From positions 22,096-86,095 of the forward strand of contig JAKSRE010000008.1 of assembly GCA_024403775.1 (NCBI GenBank): DNA of 64,000 nt, written 5' to 3'. The notes beneath the pieces are model-generated. The model searched no databases. It was not told where the DNA came from and worked only from the letters and a program-made list of their open reading frames with translations. The DNA is from Clostridia bacterium (lineage in GTDB: Bacteria; Bacillota; Clostridia; Saccharofermentanales; Saccharofermentanaceae). The position numbers were made by a program, and so were the translations under genes. Numbering within the stretch: the stretch's first letter is position 1; each line of letters begins with the position of its first letter. This document shows positions 5,542 through 64,000 of the stretch, in pieces.

Positions 5542-5595
5542 ATACTCATATTAAGTTTAGGCAATTTAGGGAAATGTTATTTGGAGGAAATTATA

Positions 5596-7326
5596 ATGGA
5601 TGCAAAAGACGTAAAAACTTACAATAGCGTTAAAGAAGTTATTAATGCTACTGTAGCTCAATATAAGAACGACGTTGCTTTCAGAGTAAAGGTTAAGGCA
5701 GGAAAGGAGCCTGAGTATAAAGATTATACTTTCGGTGAGTTTCTTGATAATGTAAATGCAGTTGGTTCAGCTTTTTATAAGGCTGGCCTTAAGGGCAAGA
5801 GAATCGCAATTGTTGGTCGTAATCAGTATTACTGGGTTGTACCACACATCGCATGTCTTATCGGTGGCATAGTATCAGTACCTATTGACAAGGAACTTCC
5901 ATTAGGAGAGCTTGAGGATTCTCTTGTAAGAGCAGAAGTAGACGCAATTGTATTCGATTCAAAGTACAAAGAGAATATCGATATCATCCGTTTAAATGGT
6001 AAGACAACAATTAAAGAATATTTCTGCATGAATGAGAAACTTGATGGCATGGCTTCTATAGAGGAATTGATTAAAGAAGGTGAGGCAGTAATTGCTTCTG
6101 GCGATTATTCATTTATCGAGTGTCAGCCAGATCCATCAAGAATGGCAATTCTTCTTTTTACTTCAGGTACAACATCAAAGTCAAAGGCAGTTATGCTCTC
6201 TGACCATGGTATCGCAGTAAATGTTTCTGATCTTCTCGCTACAGAGATTTTTAGAGAGCACTGTACAAATATCGCATTCCTTCCATACCACCATATTCTT
6301 GGTTCTACAGGAATGTTGTTCTGTATCGCTGATGGCATGAGAACTGTGTTCTCAGATGGTATCCGTTATATTCAGCAGAATTTCTCTGAGTATGGCGTTG
6401 ACTTCTTCCTTGGTGTTCCAGCCCTTGTTGATAAGATGTATGAATCAGTCGAAAAGGGTATCGCTAAGCAGGGTAAGACCAAGGCCGTAGCCTTTGCCAA
6501 GAAGTTATCAAGATTCCTTCTTTTCTTCCACATCGATGTTAGACGCAAGCTCTTTGGTTCTATCATTCAGCAGCTTGGTGGTAACTTAAATTACATCATC
6601 TCTGGTGGTGCCCCATTAAGTGCGAGAGTAGCTGAAGGTTTCCATGATTTTGGTATAGATATTTATCAGGGATACGGTCTTACTGAGACATCTCCTGTTC
6701 TTGTAGCAGAGAACTATCAGTATCACAGATTTGGTTCAATTGGTAAGGCACTTCCACATGTTACAGCAGAGATGAAAGACAAGGGCGAAGACGGTATGGG
6801 TGAGCTTTGTGTTAAGGCTCCAAACGTAATGCTCGGATACTATAAGAATGAGGAACTTACTAATGAAGTTATCGACAAGGATGGCTGGTTCCACACAGGC
6901 GACCTCGGATATATTGACAAGGATGGATATATTTTCCTTACAGGTCGTAAGAAGGATATGATTGTTCTTAAAAATGGTAAGAAGGCATTCCCAGAAGAGA
7001 TTGAGATGCTTATTAACCGCCTTCCAGGCATACTTGATTCATTCGTTTATGGCGAGCCAATCGATGGTGATTATACAGATTTAAGAATCTGCTGCGAGGT
7101 TCAGTTCGACAAGAAAGCTTGTAAGGAGTTATATGGCGAAGATGAGAGTGCTATAAGAGATGGCATCTGGAACAGCATTAAGGAACTTAATCAGACTATC
7201 CCTCACTATAAGAGAGTAACTGATTTGTACCTCACAGAGGAGAATTTTATTAAGACAACTTCGCTTAAGATTAAGCGTAAGGAGGAACTCCAGAAAGTCT
7301 TGAAGGCGAAGGGTCTTATTAAGTAA
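5596..7326 (+). CDS. AMP-dependent synthetase/ligase (long-chain fatty-acid--CoA ligase-like)
   Basis: AMP-binding motif LFTSGTTSKSKAV, plus GYGLTET and TGDLGYIDKDGY motifs. The start is placed at ATG 5596, behind ggagg. Confidence 0.88.
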   Translation: MDAKDVKTYNSVKEVINATVAQYKNDVAFRVKVKAGKEPEYKDYTFGEFLDNVNAVGSAFYKAGLKGKRIAIVGRNQYYWVVPHIACLIGGIVSVPIDKELPLGELEDSLVRAEVDAIVFDSKYKENIDIIRLNGKTTIKEYFCMNEKLDGMASIEELIKEGEAVIASGDYSFIECQPDPSRMAILLFTSGTTSKSKAVMLSDHGIAVNVSDLLATEIFREHCTNIAFLPYHHILGSTGMLFCIADGMRTVFSDGIRYIQQNFSEYGVDFFLGVPALVDKMYESVEKGIAKQGKTKAVAFAKKLSRFLLFFHIDVRRKLFGSIIQQLGGNLNYIISGGAPLSARVAEGFHDFGIDIYQGYGLTETSPVLVAENYQYHRFGSIGKALPHVTAEMKDKGEDGMGELCVKAPNVMLGYYKNEELTNEVIDKDGWFHTGDLGYIDKDGYIFLTGRKKDMIVLKNGKKAFPEEIEMLINRLPGILDSFVYGEPIDGDYTDLRICCEVQFDKKACKELYGEDESAIRDGIWNSIKELNQTIPHYKRVTDLYLTEENFIKTTSLKIKRKEELQKVLKAKGLIK

Positions 7327-7380
7327 GAATCTCCTTCTCGAAAGTAGTTTCCACAAAATATCAAAATATTAGCGTCGGAG

Positions 7381-7420
7381 GGTTATAAGTCCCCCCCCGG
7401 CGCTTTTGTTATGGTTATGT
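7381..7420 (+). terminator. intrinsic terminator
   Basis: GC-rich hairpin agcgtcggaggg-ttataagt-ccccccccggcgct followed by ttttgtt. Confidence 0.6.
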
Positions 7421-7466
7421 GGAGGGTGCGGGTGAGGAGATTGTGGATTTTAAAGTCTTGGGATTA

Positions 7467-8036
7467 AAAGTCTATGTATGTGGTCTAGGTAGCCTAGACC
7501 AGTGACCTGGAATTTAAGGGTTAAAACGCCCAAAGTCTATGTATATGGTCTAGGTAGCCTAGACCAGTAACCTGGAATTTAAGGGTTAAAACGCCCAAAG
7601 TCTATGTACATGGTCTAGGTAACCTAGACCAGTGACCTGGAATTTAAGGTCTAAAACGTCAAAAGTCTATGTACATGGTCTAGGTAGCCTAGACCAGTAA
7701 CCTGGAATTTAAGGGTTAAAACGCCCAAAGTCTATGTACATGGTCTAGGTAACCTAGACCAGTGACCTGGAATTTAAGGTCTAAAACGTCAAAAGTCTAT
7801 GTACATGGTCTAGGTAGCCTAGACCAGTGACCTAGAATTTAAGGGTTAAAACGCCAAAAGTCTATGTACGTGGTCTAGGTAGCCTAGACCAGTGACCTAG
7901 AATTTAAGGTCTAAAACGCCAAAAGTCTATGTATGTGGTCTAGGTAGCCTAGACCAGTGACCTAGAATTTAAGGTCTAAAACGTCAAAAGTCTATGTACA
8001 TGGTCTAGGTAGCCTAGACCAGTAACCTGGAATTTA
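7467..8036. repeat. tandem array of 9 type-A units (65-bp period) each with the hairpin ggtctagg-tag-cctagacc
   Basis: Unit starts (aaagtctatgta) were indexed by hand at 7467, 7532, 7597, 7662, 7727, 7792, 7857, 7922 and 7987. Confidence 0.97.
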
Positions 8037-8041
8037 TGACT

Positions 8042-8183
8042 TTCACGGTGAGATGTCGCGGTAGCCGGTACACTCTACCGCGGATTTGAGGTCAAAACAG
8101 CGATTTTTCACGGTAAGATGTCGCGGTAGCCGGTACACTCTACCGCGAATTAACGGTACAACGTTACGGTAACCGTCACATGC
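8042..8183. repeat. two type-B units (65-bp period, hairpin cgcggtag-N10-ctaccgcg) plus one diverged B-like (C') unit
   Basis: The ttcacggt units start at 8042 and 8107. They are followed by aacggtacaacgttacggtaaccgtcac. The same modules recur at 41.1 kb and 62.7 kb. Confidence 0.9.
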
Positions 8184-8362
8184 ACGCCCCGATTCCTCCG
8201 CCACTACTACCACTTACAAGGCTGCTACCATAAACTTAGACGCCACTGTCAACCTGTCCCACCACCGCCTGGTCCGCTGTCACTATCATAATCGAATCAA
8301 ACTAATTATCCATTAGAACTTATTGGTTTATAATAATTAATAAAAAAACAAAGAGGCATAAA

Positions 8363-8896
8363 ATGGTCTATTTTAGTAATGAAGAAATATTAATTCGTGA
8401 TATGGTTTCAAGTGATGCGCAGATAATAACAGATTTGGAGATTAAGCAGGGTTGGAATCAGACTATAGATAAATATAATAAGCGACTTAAGGATCAGGAA
8501 GACGGAAAATCTTATGCGATTGTGGCTGAGTATAAAGGATGCATCGCTGGATATATAAATGTTTATTTGAATTCTGATGAGGGACCTTATAAAAATCTTG
8601 GGATACCTGAGATAGTGGATTTGGGTGTTCTTAAAGAATACCGTAATAAAGGTATCGGAAATAAACTACTGGATATTGCCGAAGATATATCTTCTAAGCA
8701 TTCTGATCAAGTTTTCTTAGCGGTTGGACTTCATAATGGATATGGAGCAGCTCAGCGTATGTATGTAAAGCGTGGATATATTCCTGATGGATCTGGCGTG
8801 TGGTATGAAGGTCAGGTTTTACCACAATATGAGAAATGCGTTAATGATGATAGTTTGGTATTATTTTTTGCGAAAAGCTTGGCTAAAGAGAATTAA
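8363..8896 (+). CDS. GNAT family N-acetyltransferase
   Basis: 177 aa. Acetyl-CoA binding motif EYRNKGIGNKLL (R/Q-x-x-G-x-G/A). Confidence 0.8.
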   Translation: MVYFSNEEILIRDMVSSDAQIITDLEIKQGWNQTIDKYNKRLKDQEDGKSYAIVAEYKGCIAGYINVYLNSDEGPYKNLGIPEIVDLGVLKEYRNKGIGNKLLDIAEDISSKHSDQVFLAVGLHNGYGAAQRMYVKRGYIPDGSGVWYEGQVLPQYEKCVNDDSLVLFFAKSLAKEN

Positions 8897-25344: not shown

Positions 25345-26478
25345 ATGCATTTTTTTATTAAGCATAAAGATTTGAACATATTGAAGTTTGAATTAATACA
25401 TAACTTTGCCGATCCAGAAGTACAAATTGAATGGATTAATGAGGACTTTAGAGAATTTCTTCCACTAGATTTAGAACTTACGAACGAGGGTGTTGCTAAG
25501 TGGCTTAAGCATAGAACAATACCTAAGAACAGAGCGTACGTAAATAACTTTCTTTCAAAATGTGGCCTTAGTATAAATAGACCTATGGATATTATATCTG
25601 TGTCTAAGGGGCTTAGTCTAAATGATGTTTACTGGGTTGTAGAAGAAGGCTTTGATGGGTGTTTTGACAGGTATAATCTATACGAGAATAATTTTAGTCA
25701 GATTTTAGCGTTGATTGCTTTTACTGGTTACGGTAGTTCTATTAGAAGTTCTCTTGCATCATGCCCTGAGTTTACAACAAATGGTAATTTGCCTAAATGT
25801 TGGAGAAGAGAATCAGGAAAGGTATACCTTTATAAGGGTGGAACTTCTGGGGCTTCAAATACTGGTAATGAACCTTATTCCGAATACTATGCATCTCAGA
25901 TTGCAAAGGCTATGGGTATAAATGCAATTGACTATAGCATTAAAAAATGGAATGGTGAGTTGTGCTCAGTCTGTGAGATATTCTCTGGTTTAGATTATTC
26001 ATTTGTTCCAGTTGGAAGGCTAGTAACAAAGGGAGGAATGGAAGCGGTAAGAGCCTTCTATGAAGGTTTAGGTCCTGAATTTGTAGATGCTCTTAATGAA
26101 ATGCTTGTATTTGATGCCGTTATCTGTAACACTGATAGACATTTTGGTAATTTTGGAGTTTTGGTTGATAACAAAACCAATAAGATAGTTTGTCCTGCTC
26201 CTTTATTTGATCATGGTAATTCTCTTTTCAATTTCGCTGGAGGATTGGACTTAGAATCTAGTGAAGCTTTTCAGGAATATGTTGATACTCTTTTACCAGC
26301 TACATATGACGATTTTATTTCTACTGCAAAAATGTTCATGACTGACAAAAATCGAGAGCAAGTTAGACACTTGTTGGATTATAAACTGAAAAAGAATGTA
26401 AGATATAACGTTTCAAATGAACGATATAAACTTATAAATTCTCAAATAATTAAGCGTGCCAAACTGTTGCTTGAATGA
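25345..26478 (+). CDS. HipA-like serine/threonine kinase domain protein (solitary, no adjacent HipB)
   Basis: 377 aa. Catalytic-loop-like CNTDRHFGNFG (DRHxxN) and the downstream FDHGNSLF. The gene is visibly more AT-rich than its neighbours. Confidence 0.7.
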   Translation: MHFFIKHKDLNILKFELIHNFADPEVQIEWINEDFREFLPLDLELTNEGVAKWLKHRTIPKNRAYVNNFLSKCGLSINRPMDIISVSKGLSLNDVYWVVEEGFDGCFDRYNLYENNFSQILALIAFTGYGSSIRSSLASCPEFTTNGNLPKCWRRESGKVYLYKGGTSGASNTGNEPYSEYYASQIAKAMGINAIDYSIKKWNGELCSVCEIFSGLDYSFVPVGRLVTKGGMEAVRAFYEGLGPEFVDALNEMLVFDAVICNTDRHFGNFGVLVDNKTNKIVCPAPLFDHGNSLFNFAGGLDLESSEAFQEYVDTLLPATYDDFISTAKMFMTDKNREQVRHLLDYKLKKNVRYNVSNERYKLINSQIIKRAKLLLE

Positions 26479-40922: not shown

Positions 40923-40958
40923 TTAAATGATGCCACCTCAAAACCTATGGGTTTTGAG
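40923..40958 (+). terminator. intrinsic terminator
   Basis: Perfect 13-bp stem ccacctcaaaacc-tatg-ggttttgaggtgg followed by tttttg. Confidence 0.9.
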
Positions 40959-41000
40959 GTGGTTTTTGTGTTGTGTGGGATATTGTGGTTATTTATGGAT

Positions 41001-41119
41001 TAGAACATGAAAAGTCTATGTACATGGTCTAGGTAGCCTAGACCGGTGACCTAAAAATTAAGGGTTAAAACGTCAAAAGTCTATGTACATGGTCTAGGTA
41101 ACCTAGACCAGTAACCTGG
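41001..41119. repeat. two type-A 65-bp units
   Basis: aaagtctatgtacatgg starts at 41001 and 41066. Same consensus as at 7.5 kb and 62.8 kb. Confidence 0.95.
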
Positions 41120-41300
41120 AATTTTGATTTTCACGGTAAGATGTCGCGGTAGCCGGTACACCCAACCGCGAATTTGGGGCCAGAATAGCATTTTTTCACG
41201 GTACAATGTCGCGGTAGCCGGTACACCCAACCGCGAATCTGAGGCTAAAAGCACGATTTTTCACGGTAAGATGTCGCGGTAGCCGGTACACCCAACCGCG
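41120..41300. repeat. three type-B 65-bp units
   Basis: ttcacggta starts at 41120, 41185 and 41250. Core sequence gatgtcgcggtagccggtacacccaaccgcg. Confidence 0.95.
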
Positions 41301-41371
41301 AATCTATGAATTAATCAGTGTCAAGGTCCAACTAATTGCGTTATAGACTTTGTACAACCACGATGCCATTC

Positions 41372-41555
41372 ACCTACCGACAAAACTAACAGTACAAGTG
41401 ACGGTTACCGTAACATCCTACCGTCATTTTAGGCTATTTACTGACCAAACTAACAGTACAAGTGACGGTTACCGTAACGTCCTACCATCATTTTAGGCTA
41501 TTTAACGACAAAACTAACTGTATAAGTGACGCCAACCGTAAAGTCTTACCATTAA
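41372..41555. repeat. three type-C units (about 64-bp period), inverted B-like modules
   Basis: aaactaac starts at 41373, 41437 and 41501. The core gtgacggttaccgtaac is the reverse complement of gttacggtaaccgtcac seen at 8.17 kb and 62.73 kb. Confidence 0.9.
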
Positions 41556-41800
41556 TTCACCCCTTTCATCCCCAAATCAGTAAATCTCGCATTCTCTTAC
41601 CCAGAAACTCAAAGTAACTCCAGCACATCTTCCCAATTTCAATCCCAATTCCAATCCCAATCCCATTCCCGCTCCTAATTCCAAAAACAATTCTCAACCT
41701 CGCGCAAGTCTTACACAAAAAACATTCTCACACCAGATCGCGTAAGCCACCACTACTTCCAGGAGTACAAGATCCTACAATCAGCGGCACAAACCACCAT
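41548..41800 (+). other. G-depleted, C-rich non-coding tract (rut-like; C3-tract run at 41622-41660)
   Basis: Hand count for 41561-41680: 44 C and 6 G out of 120 nt. No ORF of 60 aa or more. Confidence 0.7.
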
Positions 41801-41877
41801 TAAATCTGCGAATTAATTCCTTTGTGCAACCTGCAAAAATATAAAAGAAATTTGTTTTGTAATTTCTTTGAAATATT

Positions 41878-41906
41878 GAAAAAAATGTTGCAATTTAACC
41901 GAAACA
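41878..41906 (+). promoter_or_regulatory. candidate sigma-A promoter of the mraZ/dcw operon (TTGCAA-17-TAAAAT)
   Basis: ttgcaa at 41878-41883, a 17-nt spacer, and taaaat at 41901-41906. The inverted repeat aaatgtt/aacattt spans the -35 element and spacer. Confidence 0.55.
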
Positions 41907-41976
41907 TTTGTAAAATCATTGTGTCAGAGGGATAAAAAGTTACAAAAAGTTGTGTTTGAGTGTCGTTTTGTGGTTG

Positions 41977-42053
41977 AATCGGGATGAAACAGTAAACAGT
42001 AAGCGGTAAGCAGTAAGCGGTAAACAGTAAACGCCGAACGTTAAACAGTAACC
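41977..42053 (+). repeat. heptanucleotide tandem repeat (consensus AARCRGT, about 11 units) in the mraZ leader
   Basis: Units in order: aaacagt aaacagt aagcggt aagcagt aagcggt aaacagt aaacgcc gaacgtt aaacagt aacctgt aagcgta. The repeat decays further downstream. Confidence 0.85.
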
Positions 42054-42147
42054 TGTAAGCGTAACCAGCAAATTGCAAAGGTAAACAGCCCTAGCAATTA
42101 GCTAAGTTAGTTTCTTCCAATCAACTTTAGGGCTTAACCAAGAACAA

Positions 42148-62589: not shown

Positions 62590-62620
62590 TTAAGTTATTT
62601 ATTAAGATTGGTTTTAATAA

Positions 62621-62658
62621 CTGTCTCAAGGTTATATGGCTTTGGGACAGTTTTTTTG
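62621..62658 (+). terminator. intrinsic terminator
   Basis: ctgtctcaa-N12-ttgggacag (one G-U pair) followed by ttttttt. Confidence 0.8.
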
Positions 62659-62671
62659 TTGATGGATGTTT

Positions 62672-62750
62672 TTCATGGTAGGATGCCGCGGTAGTTGGTA
62701 CACTCTACCGCGGATTAATGGTAAGACGTTACGGTAACCGTCACTTACAC
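62672..62750. repeat. one type-B unit plus one C' unit
   Basis: ttcatggtaggatgccgcggtagttggtacactctaccgcgg followed by attaatggtaagacgttacggtaaccgtcac. Confidence 0.9.
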
Positions 62751-62773
62751 ACTTATTTAATGAATAAGACGTA

Positions 62774-63148
62774 AAAGTCTATGTACATGGTCTAGGTCGC
62801 CTAGACCGGTAACCTAGAATTTAAGGCCAAAAATGCCAAAAGTCTATGTATGTGGTCTAGGTAGCCTAGACCGGTAACCTAGAATTTAAGGCCAAAAACG
62901 CCAAAAGTCTATGTACATGGTCTAGGTAGCCTAGACCAGTAACCTGGAATTTAAGGCCCAAAACGCCAAAAGTCTATGTATGCGGTCTAGGTAGCCTAGA
63001 CCAGTAACCTAGAATTTAAGGCCAAAAATGCCAAAAGTCTATGTACATGGTCTAGGTAGCCTAGACCAGTAACCTAGAATTCAAGGCCAAAAACGCCAAA
63101 AGTCTATGTACATGGTCTAGGTAGCCTAGACCAGTAACCTGGAATGTA
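62774..63148. repeat. tandem array of 6 type-A units (65-bp period)
   Basis: Unit starts at 62774, 62839, 62904, 62969, 63034 and 63099. Confidence 0.97.
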
Positions 63149-63153
63149 TGACT

Positions 63154-63200
63154 TTCACGCTACGATGTCGCGGTAGCCGCGACATCAAACCGCGGATTTC
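63154..63200. repeat. terminal B-like unit containing a perfect 10-bp-arm palindrome
   Basis: gatgtcgcgg-tag-ccgcgacatc at 63164-63186. The A-to-B junction cctggaatgtatgactttcacg matches the junction at the other loci. Confidence 0.85.
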
Positions 63201-63272
63201 ATATAGCTATGCCACTTTTTTCTATTCAAAAGATGTATAATTAGAATATATGAATTAATGAGAGGTTATTTT

Positions 63273-64000
63273 ATGCTTCTTGGTGCCAGAATTATAAATT
63301 ATGACATATTTGATGATGACATTATGGGTTGTCTCATGGAAGACTATCCTGATGGACTTCGCATGACAAGACTTACAGCTATGATTGGACGTAATCAGAC
63401 TGGTAAGACTTCATTTATTGACAGTTTGAATTTCGTAAAAGATACGGTCAGAAGAAATGTTACTGAGAGTTCAACTAATCATGGAAGACCAGGATTTTCA
63501 AAACTAGTAATTGATAACACAAATGAAGCAGTTTTTAAGCTGTATTTTAAACTTCCTTCAATTGATCCAGCGTATAAATATATTCTTACCCAGTATGAAT
63601 TAAGTGTAAAAGCCAATGCTTTTGGAAGTCCAGAGATTAGTTCTGAGAAGCTTTATATGCTTAGTAAAAATAGCGATGAGACTTATACCAAGACTTCCAT
63701 TATGGAGATAACAAATGGGGAAGGTTTTATCATTGGTAAATCTGGTAAAGAAGAAGTTGAGCTTGAGGATAAGGCAGTTACTGCGCTTGGAACCTTTGGT
63801 AAGATTACCAAATATTCTGTTATCTGCAGCACATACCGTGAGATTATGAGATGGTTTTTCTGCAGATTTTCGGCGGAGAATAAGAGTACATATTTTGCTG
63901 ATGGCAATGCGCCTGGAGCACATAAGCACCTTAACAGCGACGGAACCAATGTAGGTAATGTGCTTTTGTATCTTAAATCTCTTGATGAGAGAAAATATAA
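63273..64000 (+). CDS. AAA_21/ABC-like ATPase, 5' part only (runs off the window)
   Basis: My own translation from ATG 63273 is open to the window end. Walker A is GRNQTGKTS, and a late DGTNVGNVLLYL segment is typical of AAA_15/AAA_21 proteins as I recall them. It is absent from the ORF track because it has no stop. Confidence 0.7.
   Translation, partial: MLLGARIINYDIFDDDIMGCLMEDYPDGLRMTRLTAMIGRNQTGKTSFIDSLNFVKDTVRRNVTESSTNHGRPGFSKLVIDNTNEAVFKLYFKLPSIDPAYKYILTQYELSVKANAFGSPEISSEKLYMLSKNSDETYTKTSIMEITNGEGFIIGKSGKEEVELEDKAVTALGTFGKITKYSVICSTYREIMRWFFCRFSAENKSTYFADGNAPGAHKHLNSDGTNVGNVLLYLKSLDERKY

Follow-up and report, generated by a model that had tools for sequence, protein, structure and literature searches.

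The stretch of Clostridia bacterium DNA analysed here, 64,000 nucleotides of contig JAKSRE010000008.1 (positions 22,096 to 86,095; hereafter the window), carries a tandem array of 65-bp hairpin units in the gap between an AMP-binding (acyl-CoA ligase-like) gene (5581-7326, assigned by Pfam) and a GNAT gene at 8363, with modules of the same family at two further loci. Nearly all genes in the window lie on the + strand, GC content ranges from 35 to 44% with a mean of about 38%, and GC skew is positive throughout. As a preliminary description of this DNA had stated, the gap (7357-8362) holds no open reading frame (ORF) of 60 or more amino acids, and the element follows a terminator: folding placed the intrinsic terminator of the AMP-binding gene at 7371-7404 on the + strand, a hairpin followed by UUUUGUU with an energy of -18.4 kcal/mol and a z-score of -3.2, and the element begins within a few bases of its T-run.

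Locus 1 is composed of a lead-in, nine A units, two B units, one C unit and a tail. The lead-in (7405-7466, + strand) is G/T-rich and C-poor by sequence and composition, with 3% C, and includes a partial A start, AAAGTCTTGGG. The A array that follows (7467-8035, + strand) consists of nine 49-nt imperfect hairpins with a period of 65 bp and the apex GG-TAG-CC; Tandem Repeats Finder (TRF) delimits it as 7466-8036, with a period of 65, 8.8 copies, 92% matches, no indels and a score of 946. Indexing of the sequence reproduced the nine unit starts previously given, exactly at 7467 + 65n, as well as the 130-bp higher-order duplication, in which unit 5 repeats unit 3 exactly and a single base separates unit 2 from unit 4. 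By inverted-repeat analysis, the 65 nt of an A unit divide into an imperfect hairpin of 49 nt and a linker of 16 nt; the linker is present in eight of the nine units at this locus, while the ninth retains the hairpin part only and is fused to B through a conserved junction.

The hairpin had been described as an 8-bp stem. This stem, GGTCTAGG/CCTAGACC, is indeed present and constant in all 17 A copies of the window, and its loop varies as had been noted (TAG in 13 copies, TAA in three and TCG in one); the hairpin itself, however, is longer, with 23-nt arms that are 74-78% complementary: nine perfect base pairs at the apex, then a 3x3 internal loop, then a lower stem interrupted by two mismatches. 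Folded as RNA, one A unit reaches -22.2 kcal/mol (z -3.8) on the + strand and -18.8 kcal/mol (z -2.3) on the - strand. In a set of 19 distinct A units, taken from two other assemblies as well as the window, pairing is kept at 98.5% over the 18 pairs of the extended hairpin, without a single compensatory base change; two pairs alternate between U-A and U-G on the + strand, and the remaining frequent polymorphisms lie in either loop, internal or apical, or in the linker. This pattern, which rests on six variable columns, a small number, fits purifying selection on a + strand hairpin and fits recent amplification with gene conversion equally well; the invariant stem and variable loop, put forward earlier as a sign of selection or gene conversion on structure, thus do not distinguish selection from recent amplification and gene conversion. 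A further hairpin considered within the 16-nt linker was rejected, as it forms in some variants only and without covariation.

Downstream of the A array, two 65-bp B units (8036-8163, + strand) each carry the hairpin CGCGGTAG-N10-CTACCGCG and the heptamer GGTAGCC, as identified by folding and by nhmmer matches at 8037-8098 and 8103-8163 (E about 5e-21). What had been taken for a diverged B-like unit beyond them is instead a separate third module, C (ACGGTACAACGTTACGGTAACCGTCAC; 8142-8199, + strand; E 2e-15 with the C model), which overlaps the end of the second B and recurs at both other loci, inverted at 41376-41566. The tail (8200-8320, + strand) is C-rich and G-poor, with a G-C skew of -0.54, and precedes the promoter of the GNAT gene; its length varies by strain, that of L236 being longer and having an extra CCCACCACCG-type segment.

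To define the family we built hidden Markov models (HMMs) of A, B and C from their copies and ran nhmmer unfiltered on both strands of the whole window. The modules occur at three loci only: locus 1, locus 2 (40966-41820) and locus 3 (62667-63206), which are unrelated to one another and flanked by ordinary chromosomal housekeeping genes. The 65-bp A module is present in 17 copies (nine, two and six by locus) and the 65-bp B module in seven, every one on the + strand, whereas the five copies of the 64-bp C module are divided between the + strand (two) and the - strand (three). Their order is mosaic.

Locus 2 lies between rodA/ftsW with accompanying small ORFs and the mraZ-mraW pair that heads a division and cell-wall cluster. 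Directly 3' of a terminator at 40932-40963, it begins with a lead-in read from the sequence (40966-41010, + strand), followed by two A hairpins (41011-41124, + strand, module HMM) and three B units (41125-41314, + strand, TRF and module HMM). A spacer assigned to neither strand (41315-41375) contains an inverted A-start fragment, ATAGACTTT, and reads as the meeting point of two convergent partial arrays; beyond it stand three inverted C units with a 64-bp period (41376-41566, - strand, TRF; nhmmer E 6e-20 to 6e-17), the 64-bp repeat that TRF reports at 41375-41566 being the reverse complement of C. The tail (41567-41820, + strand), C/A-rich and G-poor with a CCCAAT microsatellite, ends where homology to the empty site of the congener L227 resumes, at 41821.

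Locus 3, flanked by coaD with a 157-aa ORF and by a gene for an HEC-01A-like ATPase, has the order B, C, A6, B'. One B (62667-62728) and one C (62707-62760), together spanning 62667-62760 on the + strand by module HMM, come right after a terminator at 62619-62652; six A hairpins with a locus-specific linker form, GGCCAAAAAYGCC, occupy 62774-63148 (+ strand, TRF and module HMM). The B' unit (63149-63206, + strand, module HMM) is a 57-nt hairpin of -28.7 kcal/mol (z -4.5) with the apex GG-TAG-CC on the stem TGTCGCGG/CCGCGACA. At both locus 2 and locus 3 a strong terminator immediately precedes the block.

The A-B and B-C junctions are kept across loci, and a heptamer at the hairpin apex, GGTAGCC or GGTAACC (GGTARCC), is common to A, B and C. 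Perfect hairpins of the form TGTCGCGG-TAG-CCGCGACA, found in B' and in one B unit of strain L220, have the architecture of A on another stem; kinship between B and C is weak, the C model matching the 5' halves of B units at E 0.01-0.07. Units are 92.9% identical within a locus versus 88.7% between loci, an effect strongest in the linker (88% versus 78%), and this higher likeness within loci points to amplification and homogenisation in place. The avoidance of CTAG remarked on earlier was borne out: outside the arrays the tetranucleotide occurs 39 times, against 76 expected from trinucleotides under a Markov model or 211 from mononucleotides, and 41 of the window's 80 CTAG sites are packed into about 2 kb of arrays.

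An echo of the lead-in between loci had been proposed, but 53 of 500 shuffles align equally well and the similarity is not significant; the likeness is an effect of base composition, a G-rich, C-poor sequence being the background of this strand. Local alignments showed no lead-in or tail modules conserved between loci above shuffles, and no terminal inverted repeats were found, the lead-in scoring no better against the reverse-complemented tail than against shuffles. The minimum-free-energy fold does pair lead-in and tail, but a long closing helix was rejected, since the duplex energies are close to those of shuffled tails (z -0.85 and -1.2) and the pairing is therefore compositional. The tails are G-poor, with a G-C skew of -0.81 at 41601-41700, the window minimum, and of -0.54 at 8171-8270, surpassed, apart from 41601-41700, only by a stretch inside a - strand gene. 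As a separate observation, the - strand of 41601-41700 has several GGG runs (GGGAATGGGATTGGGATT...) that could form a G-quadruplex.

Comparison with other assemblies revealed variation both between strains and between species. At locus 3, the ENA contig L089 reads through B and C and has an extra 64-bp C unit with variants of its own, after which its A units differ in sequence from the first A units of the window. At locus 2, L220, 96% identical overall, shows no fewer than three A, two B and three inverted C units where the window has two, three and three, and its tail microsatellite differs. Unit counts hence differ between strains, the comparison strains being short-read assemblies. In L227, whose flanking genes are about 81% identical and in the same order, locus 2 is an empty site, where the terminator T-run leads straight into the mraZ promoter block with 97% identity from 41821; the approximately 855 bp of 40966-41820 are therefore present in one lineage only. 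The hexamer TTTGTG stands at both ends of this block in the window and once in L227.

More distant relatives have other DNA at these sites. At locus 2, L217/L218, about 70-72% identical, hold about 230 bp of different DNA, which matches the tail weakly and contains no A, B or C, and at locus 3 the species of L229-L231 (L229/L230 about 70-72% identical) has about 570 bp of unrelated non-coding DNA without modules. An empty site for locus 1, sought through GNAT homologues, was given up, as the nearest other species is not syntenic there. Because units vary between strains and the modules are absent from the sites in sister species, the arrays are young, dispensable at these sites and fast-changing.

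Searches for the family elsewhere were negative. The exact A hairpin has no match in 185,579 GTDB representative genomes, and a degenerate A pattern none in JGI metagenome contigs; matches in viral contigs were dismissed as single, isolated chance palindromes, and the 120 matches to a 17-mer of the C core are single and lack extended similarity, hence chance as well. Plasmid and phage searches yielded no match, leaving a mobile-element or phage origin unsupported. Proteins identical to those of the window are found on contigs from at least eight sequencing runs (Logan and ENA assemblies), and the majority break off within a B, C or A unit, as a multi-copy repeat would lead one to expect of short-read assemblies. 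The arrays are thus also present in independent metagenome assemblies of the species to which the window belongs. The family stands outside Rfam, as previously claimed: the whole window gave no match at gathering thresholds, the best sub-threshold matches being microRNA-precursor models and one small-RNA model at 16-25 bits against cut-offs of 67-119, and a search of 7300-8400 at E up to 10 returned nothing credible. No tRNA or tmRNA was found; domain scans detected no transposase, cas or Y1-transposase domains among the window's ORFs, and there are no sigma-70-like promoters beyond chance in or directly before the arrays. No such family for this group of Clostridia appeared in database scans or in a limited literature search, and it is apparently species-restricted and undescribed.

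The MraW protein of the window is 82% identical to that of a Saccharofermentans metagenome-assembled genome, the next relatives being genomes of this kind from rumen and gut Clostridia. Among the mraW loci of 80 relatives we found no homologous arrays. Unrelated tandem arrays with periods of 52-61 bp lie upstream of mraZ in five of them (L013, 1-115; L023, 1852-2076; L024, 8989-9124; L028, 7698-7865; L050, 8954-9101), and in L049 an array with a 64-bp period (2720-2886) stands some 7 kb upstream of mraW. We folded one unit each from L023, L024, L028 and L050, and every one forms an imperfect hairpin of about 40-50 nt with a short linker; the L024 array also follows a terminator and a G/T-rich lead-in, and the L023 unit is partly common to L051. 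Such arrays could reflect a permissive long spacer that different repeat families have colonised, or they could be a recurrent functional device.

We consider it probable, at roughly 0.6, that the arrays of the window are a lineage-specific interspersed minisatellite of three related hairpin modules, seated in the non-coding DNA that separates a gene's terminator from the promoter of the following gene. This reading follows from the dispersed intergenic loci, the hairpin modules and their mosaic order and tandem amplification, together with the strain-variable units, the filled and empty sites and the restriction to one lineage. A block would reach a locus by a transposition- or recombination-like event, probably a rare one, in which the A-B and B-C junctions would move together. 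Once there, the arrays would gain and lose units and become homogenised through slipped-strand mispairing, unequal exchange and gene conversion, processes that the hairpins would promote. Such in-place changes would account for the perfect 65-bp register, the 130-bp duplicate, the locus-specific linkers and the invariant stem. Any effect on the cell is probably secondary or incidental and would fall on transcripts escaping the upstream terminator, where stacked hairpins would stop exonucleases coming from the 3' end or cause polymerase to pause and the C-rich, G-poor tails would help Rho to load; jointly, hairpins and tails would insulate co-directional operons.

Several points weigh against the minisatellite. 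The evidence on copy number, genome-wide orientation and a partner transposase spans 64 kb of genome, and the blocks have neither terminal inverted repeats nor ends of significant conservation, so that any defined mobile unit is at most putative. As the TTTGTG 'duplication' coincides in part with a terminator T-run, it may have arisen by chance; L227 could have lost the block by deletion, rather than the window having gained it by insertion, and L217 retains a C/A-rich stretch weakly similar to the locus 2 tail. Unit counts taken from short-read assemblies can be skewed by repeat collapse, and the frequent polymorphisms of the A hairpin, unpaired or U-A/U-G on the + strand, are also expected under selection on a + strand RNA or single-stranded DNA hairpin.

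The family is new but belongs to a familiar kind of element, resembling most the mycobacterial MIRUs, the pneumococcal BOX elements and the enterobacterial BIMEs, rather than to a new kind. MIRUs (mycobacterial interspersed repetitive units) are 40-100 bp long and dispersed; both filled and empty sites are known for them, along with short direct repeats (Supply et al. 1997, summarised in PMC3184786). The arrays share with them direct tandem units of 40-100 bp with internal inverted repeats (65 and 64 bp here, at three intergenic loci), co-orientation with flanking genes, a strain-variable copy number, and the occurrence, among related species, of filled sites bearing a short direct repeat alongside empty ones. 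They differ in having no sequence relation to MIRUs, in belonging to another phylum, in combining three modules per block, and in their position after terminators, whereas MIRUs lie inside operons. With a period of 65, not a multiple of three, they also lack the small ORFs overlapping flanking stop and start codons that mark MIRUs in operons.

BOX elements have the modular form boxA-boxB(n)-boxC, with a strain-variable number of tandem boxB, a length of 67-637 bp, terminal inverted repeats and a target-site duplication (PMC3049150). Like them, the arrays are intergenic modular composites in Firmicutes with a strain-variable tandem internal module and with stable stem-loops predicted if transcribed, and the sizes overlap (67-637 bp for BOX versus about 540-855 bp here). 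The comparison with BOX, made by description, also brings out differences: here all modules can be tandem (up to nine A, three B and three C), order and orientation vary, terminal inverted repeats are lacking, and TTTGTG, which overlaps the T-run, is doubtful as a target duplication. Similarity in sequence to BOX would not be expected.

REPs are palindromes of 20-40 bp tagged at one end with GTAG or CGTC (PMC3733652), and in BIMEs they are regularly spaced with alternating orientation (PMC2817692). A REP/BIME-like element is the best fit of the three roles offered in the preliminary description, on the strength of mosaic modules, strain-variable counts and absence at the orthologous sites of sister species; the likeness extends to species-specific hairpin repeats containing GTAG, in mosaic extragenic arrays often just after genes, and to the proposed action on mRNA stability, termination and DNA topology. 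Membership of REP/BIME proper was rejected, however, as GTAG is not at the palindrome end and orientation does not alternate: the A hairpin has a 19-nt core and measures 49 nt overall, with GTAG in the apical loop (GG-TAG-CC) and CGTC in some linkers only, and all 17 A and seven B copies run head-to-tail on one strand. REPs are further marked by a copy number above 100 per genome and by a cognate RAYT gene (IS200/IS605 Y1); the 64 kb covered here contain three loci and, among the window's ORFs, no Y1 transposase.

Staphylococcus aureus STAR elements, short GC-rich direct repeats with variable spacers, likewise form arrays between the genes of a Firmicute; their period is a few tens of bp and their copy number differs between strains. 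In the present family, by contrast, conservation covers the full 65 bp and a long hairpin makes up most of the unit. A CRISPR array was rejected, as there are no unique spacers, the unit is 92% conserved, the 16-nt linker has few variants and the window contains no cas domain. A type III toxin-antitoxin RNA (ToxI-like), whose repeats lie directly upstream of their own endoribonuclease toxin gene, was set aside because the same modules precede three unrelated genes (GNAT, mraZ and the HEC-01A-like ATPase); no ToxN/AbiQ-like domain was seen in the window. The arrays failed the defining tests for miniature inverted-repeat transposable elements. Remnants of a group II intron or of an integron attC site, considered because the arrays abut terminators and contain a bulged hairpin, were rejected as well, the former for want of an Rfam intron match and the latter since no attC-type core sites could be read in the sequence.

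Structured or processed RNA and protein binding, the other two roles proposed at the outset, are minority possibilities. It is fairly unlikely that the arrays are a functional multi-hairpin RNA transcribed by terminator read-through or from an unrecognised promoter, which could act as a 3' stabiliser or transcriptional insulator between co-directional operons, as a precursor of hairpin RNAs of about 65 nt, or as a sponge for a protein binding the GGUAGCC apex. The better folding of the + strand is consistent with this, as is the fact that the two pairs alternating between U-A and U-G on that strand would be A-C mismatches on the other, while the other frequent A polymorphisms sit in unpaired positions and the GGTARCC apex is carried by different stems (TCTAGG/CCTAGA in A, TCGCGG/CCGCGA in B'). 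Every A and B copy is co-oriented with the genes, but this orientation is based on three loci only and has a chance probability of about 0.25, and C units and an A fragment occur inverted. The C-rich, G-poor tails of loci 1 and 2 resemble Rho-loading stretches and may be read as rut sites; the arrays nevertheless sit after intrinsic terminators, not before them, with no promoter-like site in or before them. Although related species have unrelated hairpin arrays of 52-64 bp period upstream of mraZ, the element itself is absent from the same loci in close relatives and so is dispensable there, and the genes downstream of the three loci are unrelated to each other. The lack of any compensatory base change and of an Rfam family match also argues against an RNA function.

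A role as DNA binding sites is doubtful. Here the palindrome GGTCTAGG-N3-CCTAGACC and the CGGTA repeats would be recognised by a dimeric DNA-binding protein, by a nucleoid protein or gyrase, or by a hairpin-specific single-strand transposase of the RAYT type, and the arrays would organise the chromosome or be propagated by the RAYT-type enzyme. Each unit does contain the perfect 8+8 palindrome and an 8-bp palindrome, ATGTACAT, and CGGTA motifs stand 13 bp apart in B and C; BIMEs, moreover, bind IHF, gyrase and Pol I (PMC3184786). GTAG, the hallmark of REPs (PMC3733652), is present in A and B, but it lies in the hairpin loop, whereas in REPs it marks the foot of the palindrome, and the units run head-to-tail instead of alternating as in BIMEs. 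The survey of GTAG-tagged REPs names Proteobacteria, Cyanobacteria, Chloroflexi and PVC and does not mention Firmicutes (PMC3733652), and the window encodes neither a Y1 transposase nor another candidate binding protein. The preliminary description had the units present on one face of the helix; this is only approximately true, since at 10.5 bp per turn 65 bp make about 6.2 turns, so that successive units are not strictly on one face and the sites are not phased.

A broader alternative, which we regard as similarly improbable, joins the arrays of the window to those of its relatives as a clade-wide functional device of Saccharofermentans-like Clostridia: hairpins of about 50 nt with species-specific sequence, placed between a terminator and the next promoter, notably before mraZ, which would be transcribed and processed or else kept by a hairpin-specific enzyme acting on single-stranded DNA, with the GGTARCC apex as recognition determinant. 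The occurrence of this apex on different stems hints at recognition by a protein, for which there is no candidate within the 64 kb. The enzyme version, if true, would give Firmicutes their first described REP/RAYT-like system.

An assembly artefact or a chance low-complexity stretch can be practically dismissed: tandem repeats can mis-assemble and short-read contigs do break here, but the same modules and flanks are found in independent assemblies from several samples (Logan and ENA), including L089 and L220, which read into the arrays, and the unit polymorphisms are ordered and the TRF score is 946.

In L005, the closest GTDB representative (MraW 82% identical), a gene for an IS21-type helper ATPase (IstB-like), identified by reading the sequence rather than by profile search, lies upstream of mraZ (1-1100) and occupies the place of the window's repeat block. 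The mraZ promoter and leader start (41821-41984) are an unusually conserved regulatory segment, 97% identical to L227 where the flanking genes are only about 81% identical, and 90-94% identical to L217 and L005 where the flanks are about 72% identical. Within the mraZ leader, 41987-42060 is a 7-bp-period array of GTAARCR with about ten units. Its unit composition varies in L220 and L222-L226, and the sister species L227 and L217 lack it; the array could be a second, independent microsatellite or else a group of sites bound by a regulator.

Downstream of locus 3, the gene at 63273-64000 (running off the window) matches the candidate defence protein HEC-01A (PADLOC PDLC04182, E 1.8e-30) and is followed in sister species by an HEC-01B partner (L229, 7043-8904). 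Its site is variable, L228 having an extra Flg_new gene and L093 other sequence after the same terminator. Elsewhere in the window, the ORF at 25345-26478 weakly resembles a HipA_C-like kinase and matches the candidate defence family PDC-M03A at E 2e-18; the 540 bp before it are an AT-rich gap.

Should the arrays prove to be transcribed or associated with an enzyme, which is not the likeliest outcome on present evidence, they would offer a tractable Gram-positive counterpart to REP/BIME. As an interspersed minisatellite, the family accounts for the breaks that short-read assemblies of this species show at these intergenic sites, and it provides ready variable-number loci for strain typing in metagenomes. 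Locus 2, with a filled site, an empty site and a site holding other, module-free sequence, is useful for studying how such arrays originate. The finding adds a well-delimited interspersed repeat family to the poorly studied and mostly uncultured Clostridia of the rumen and gut.

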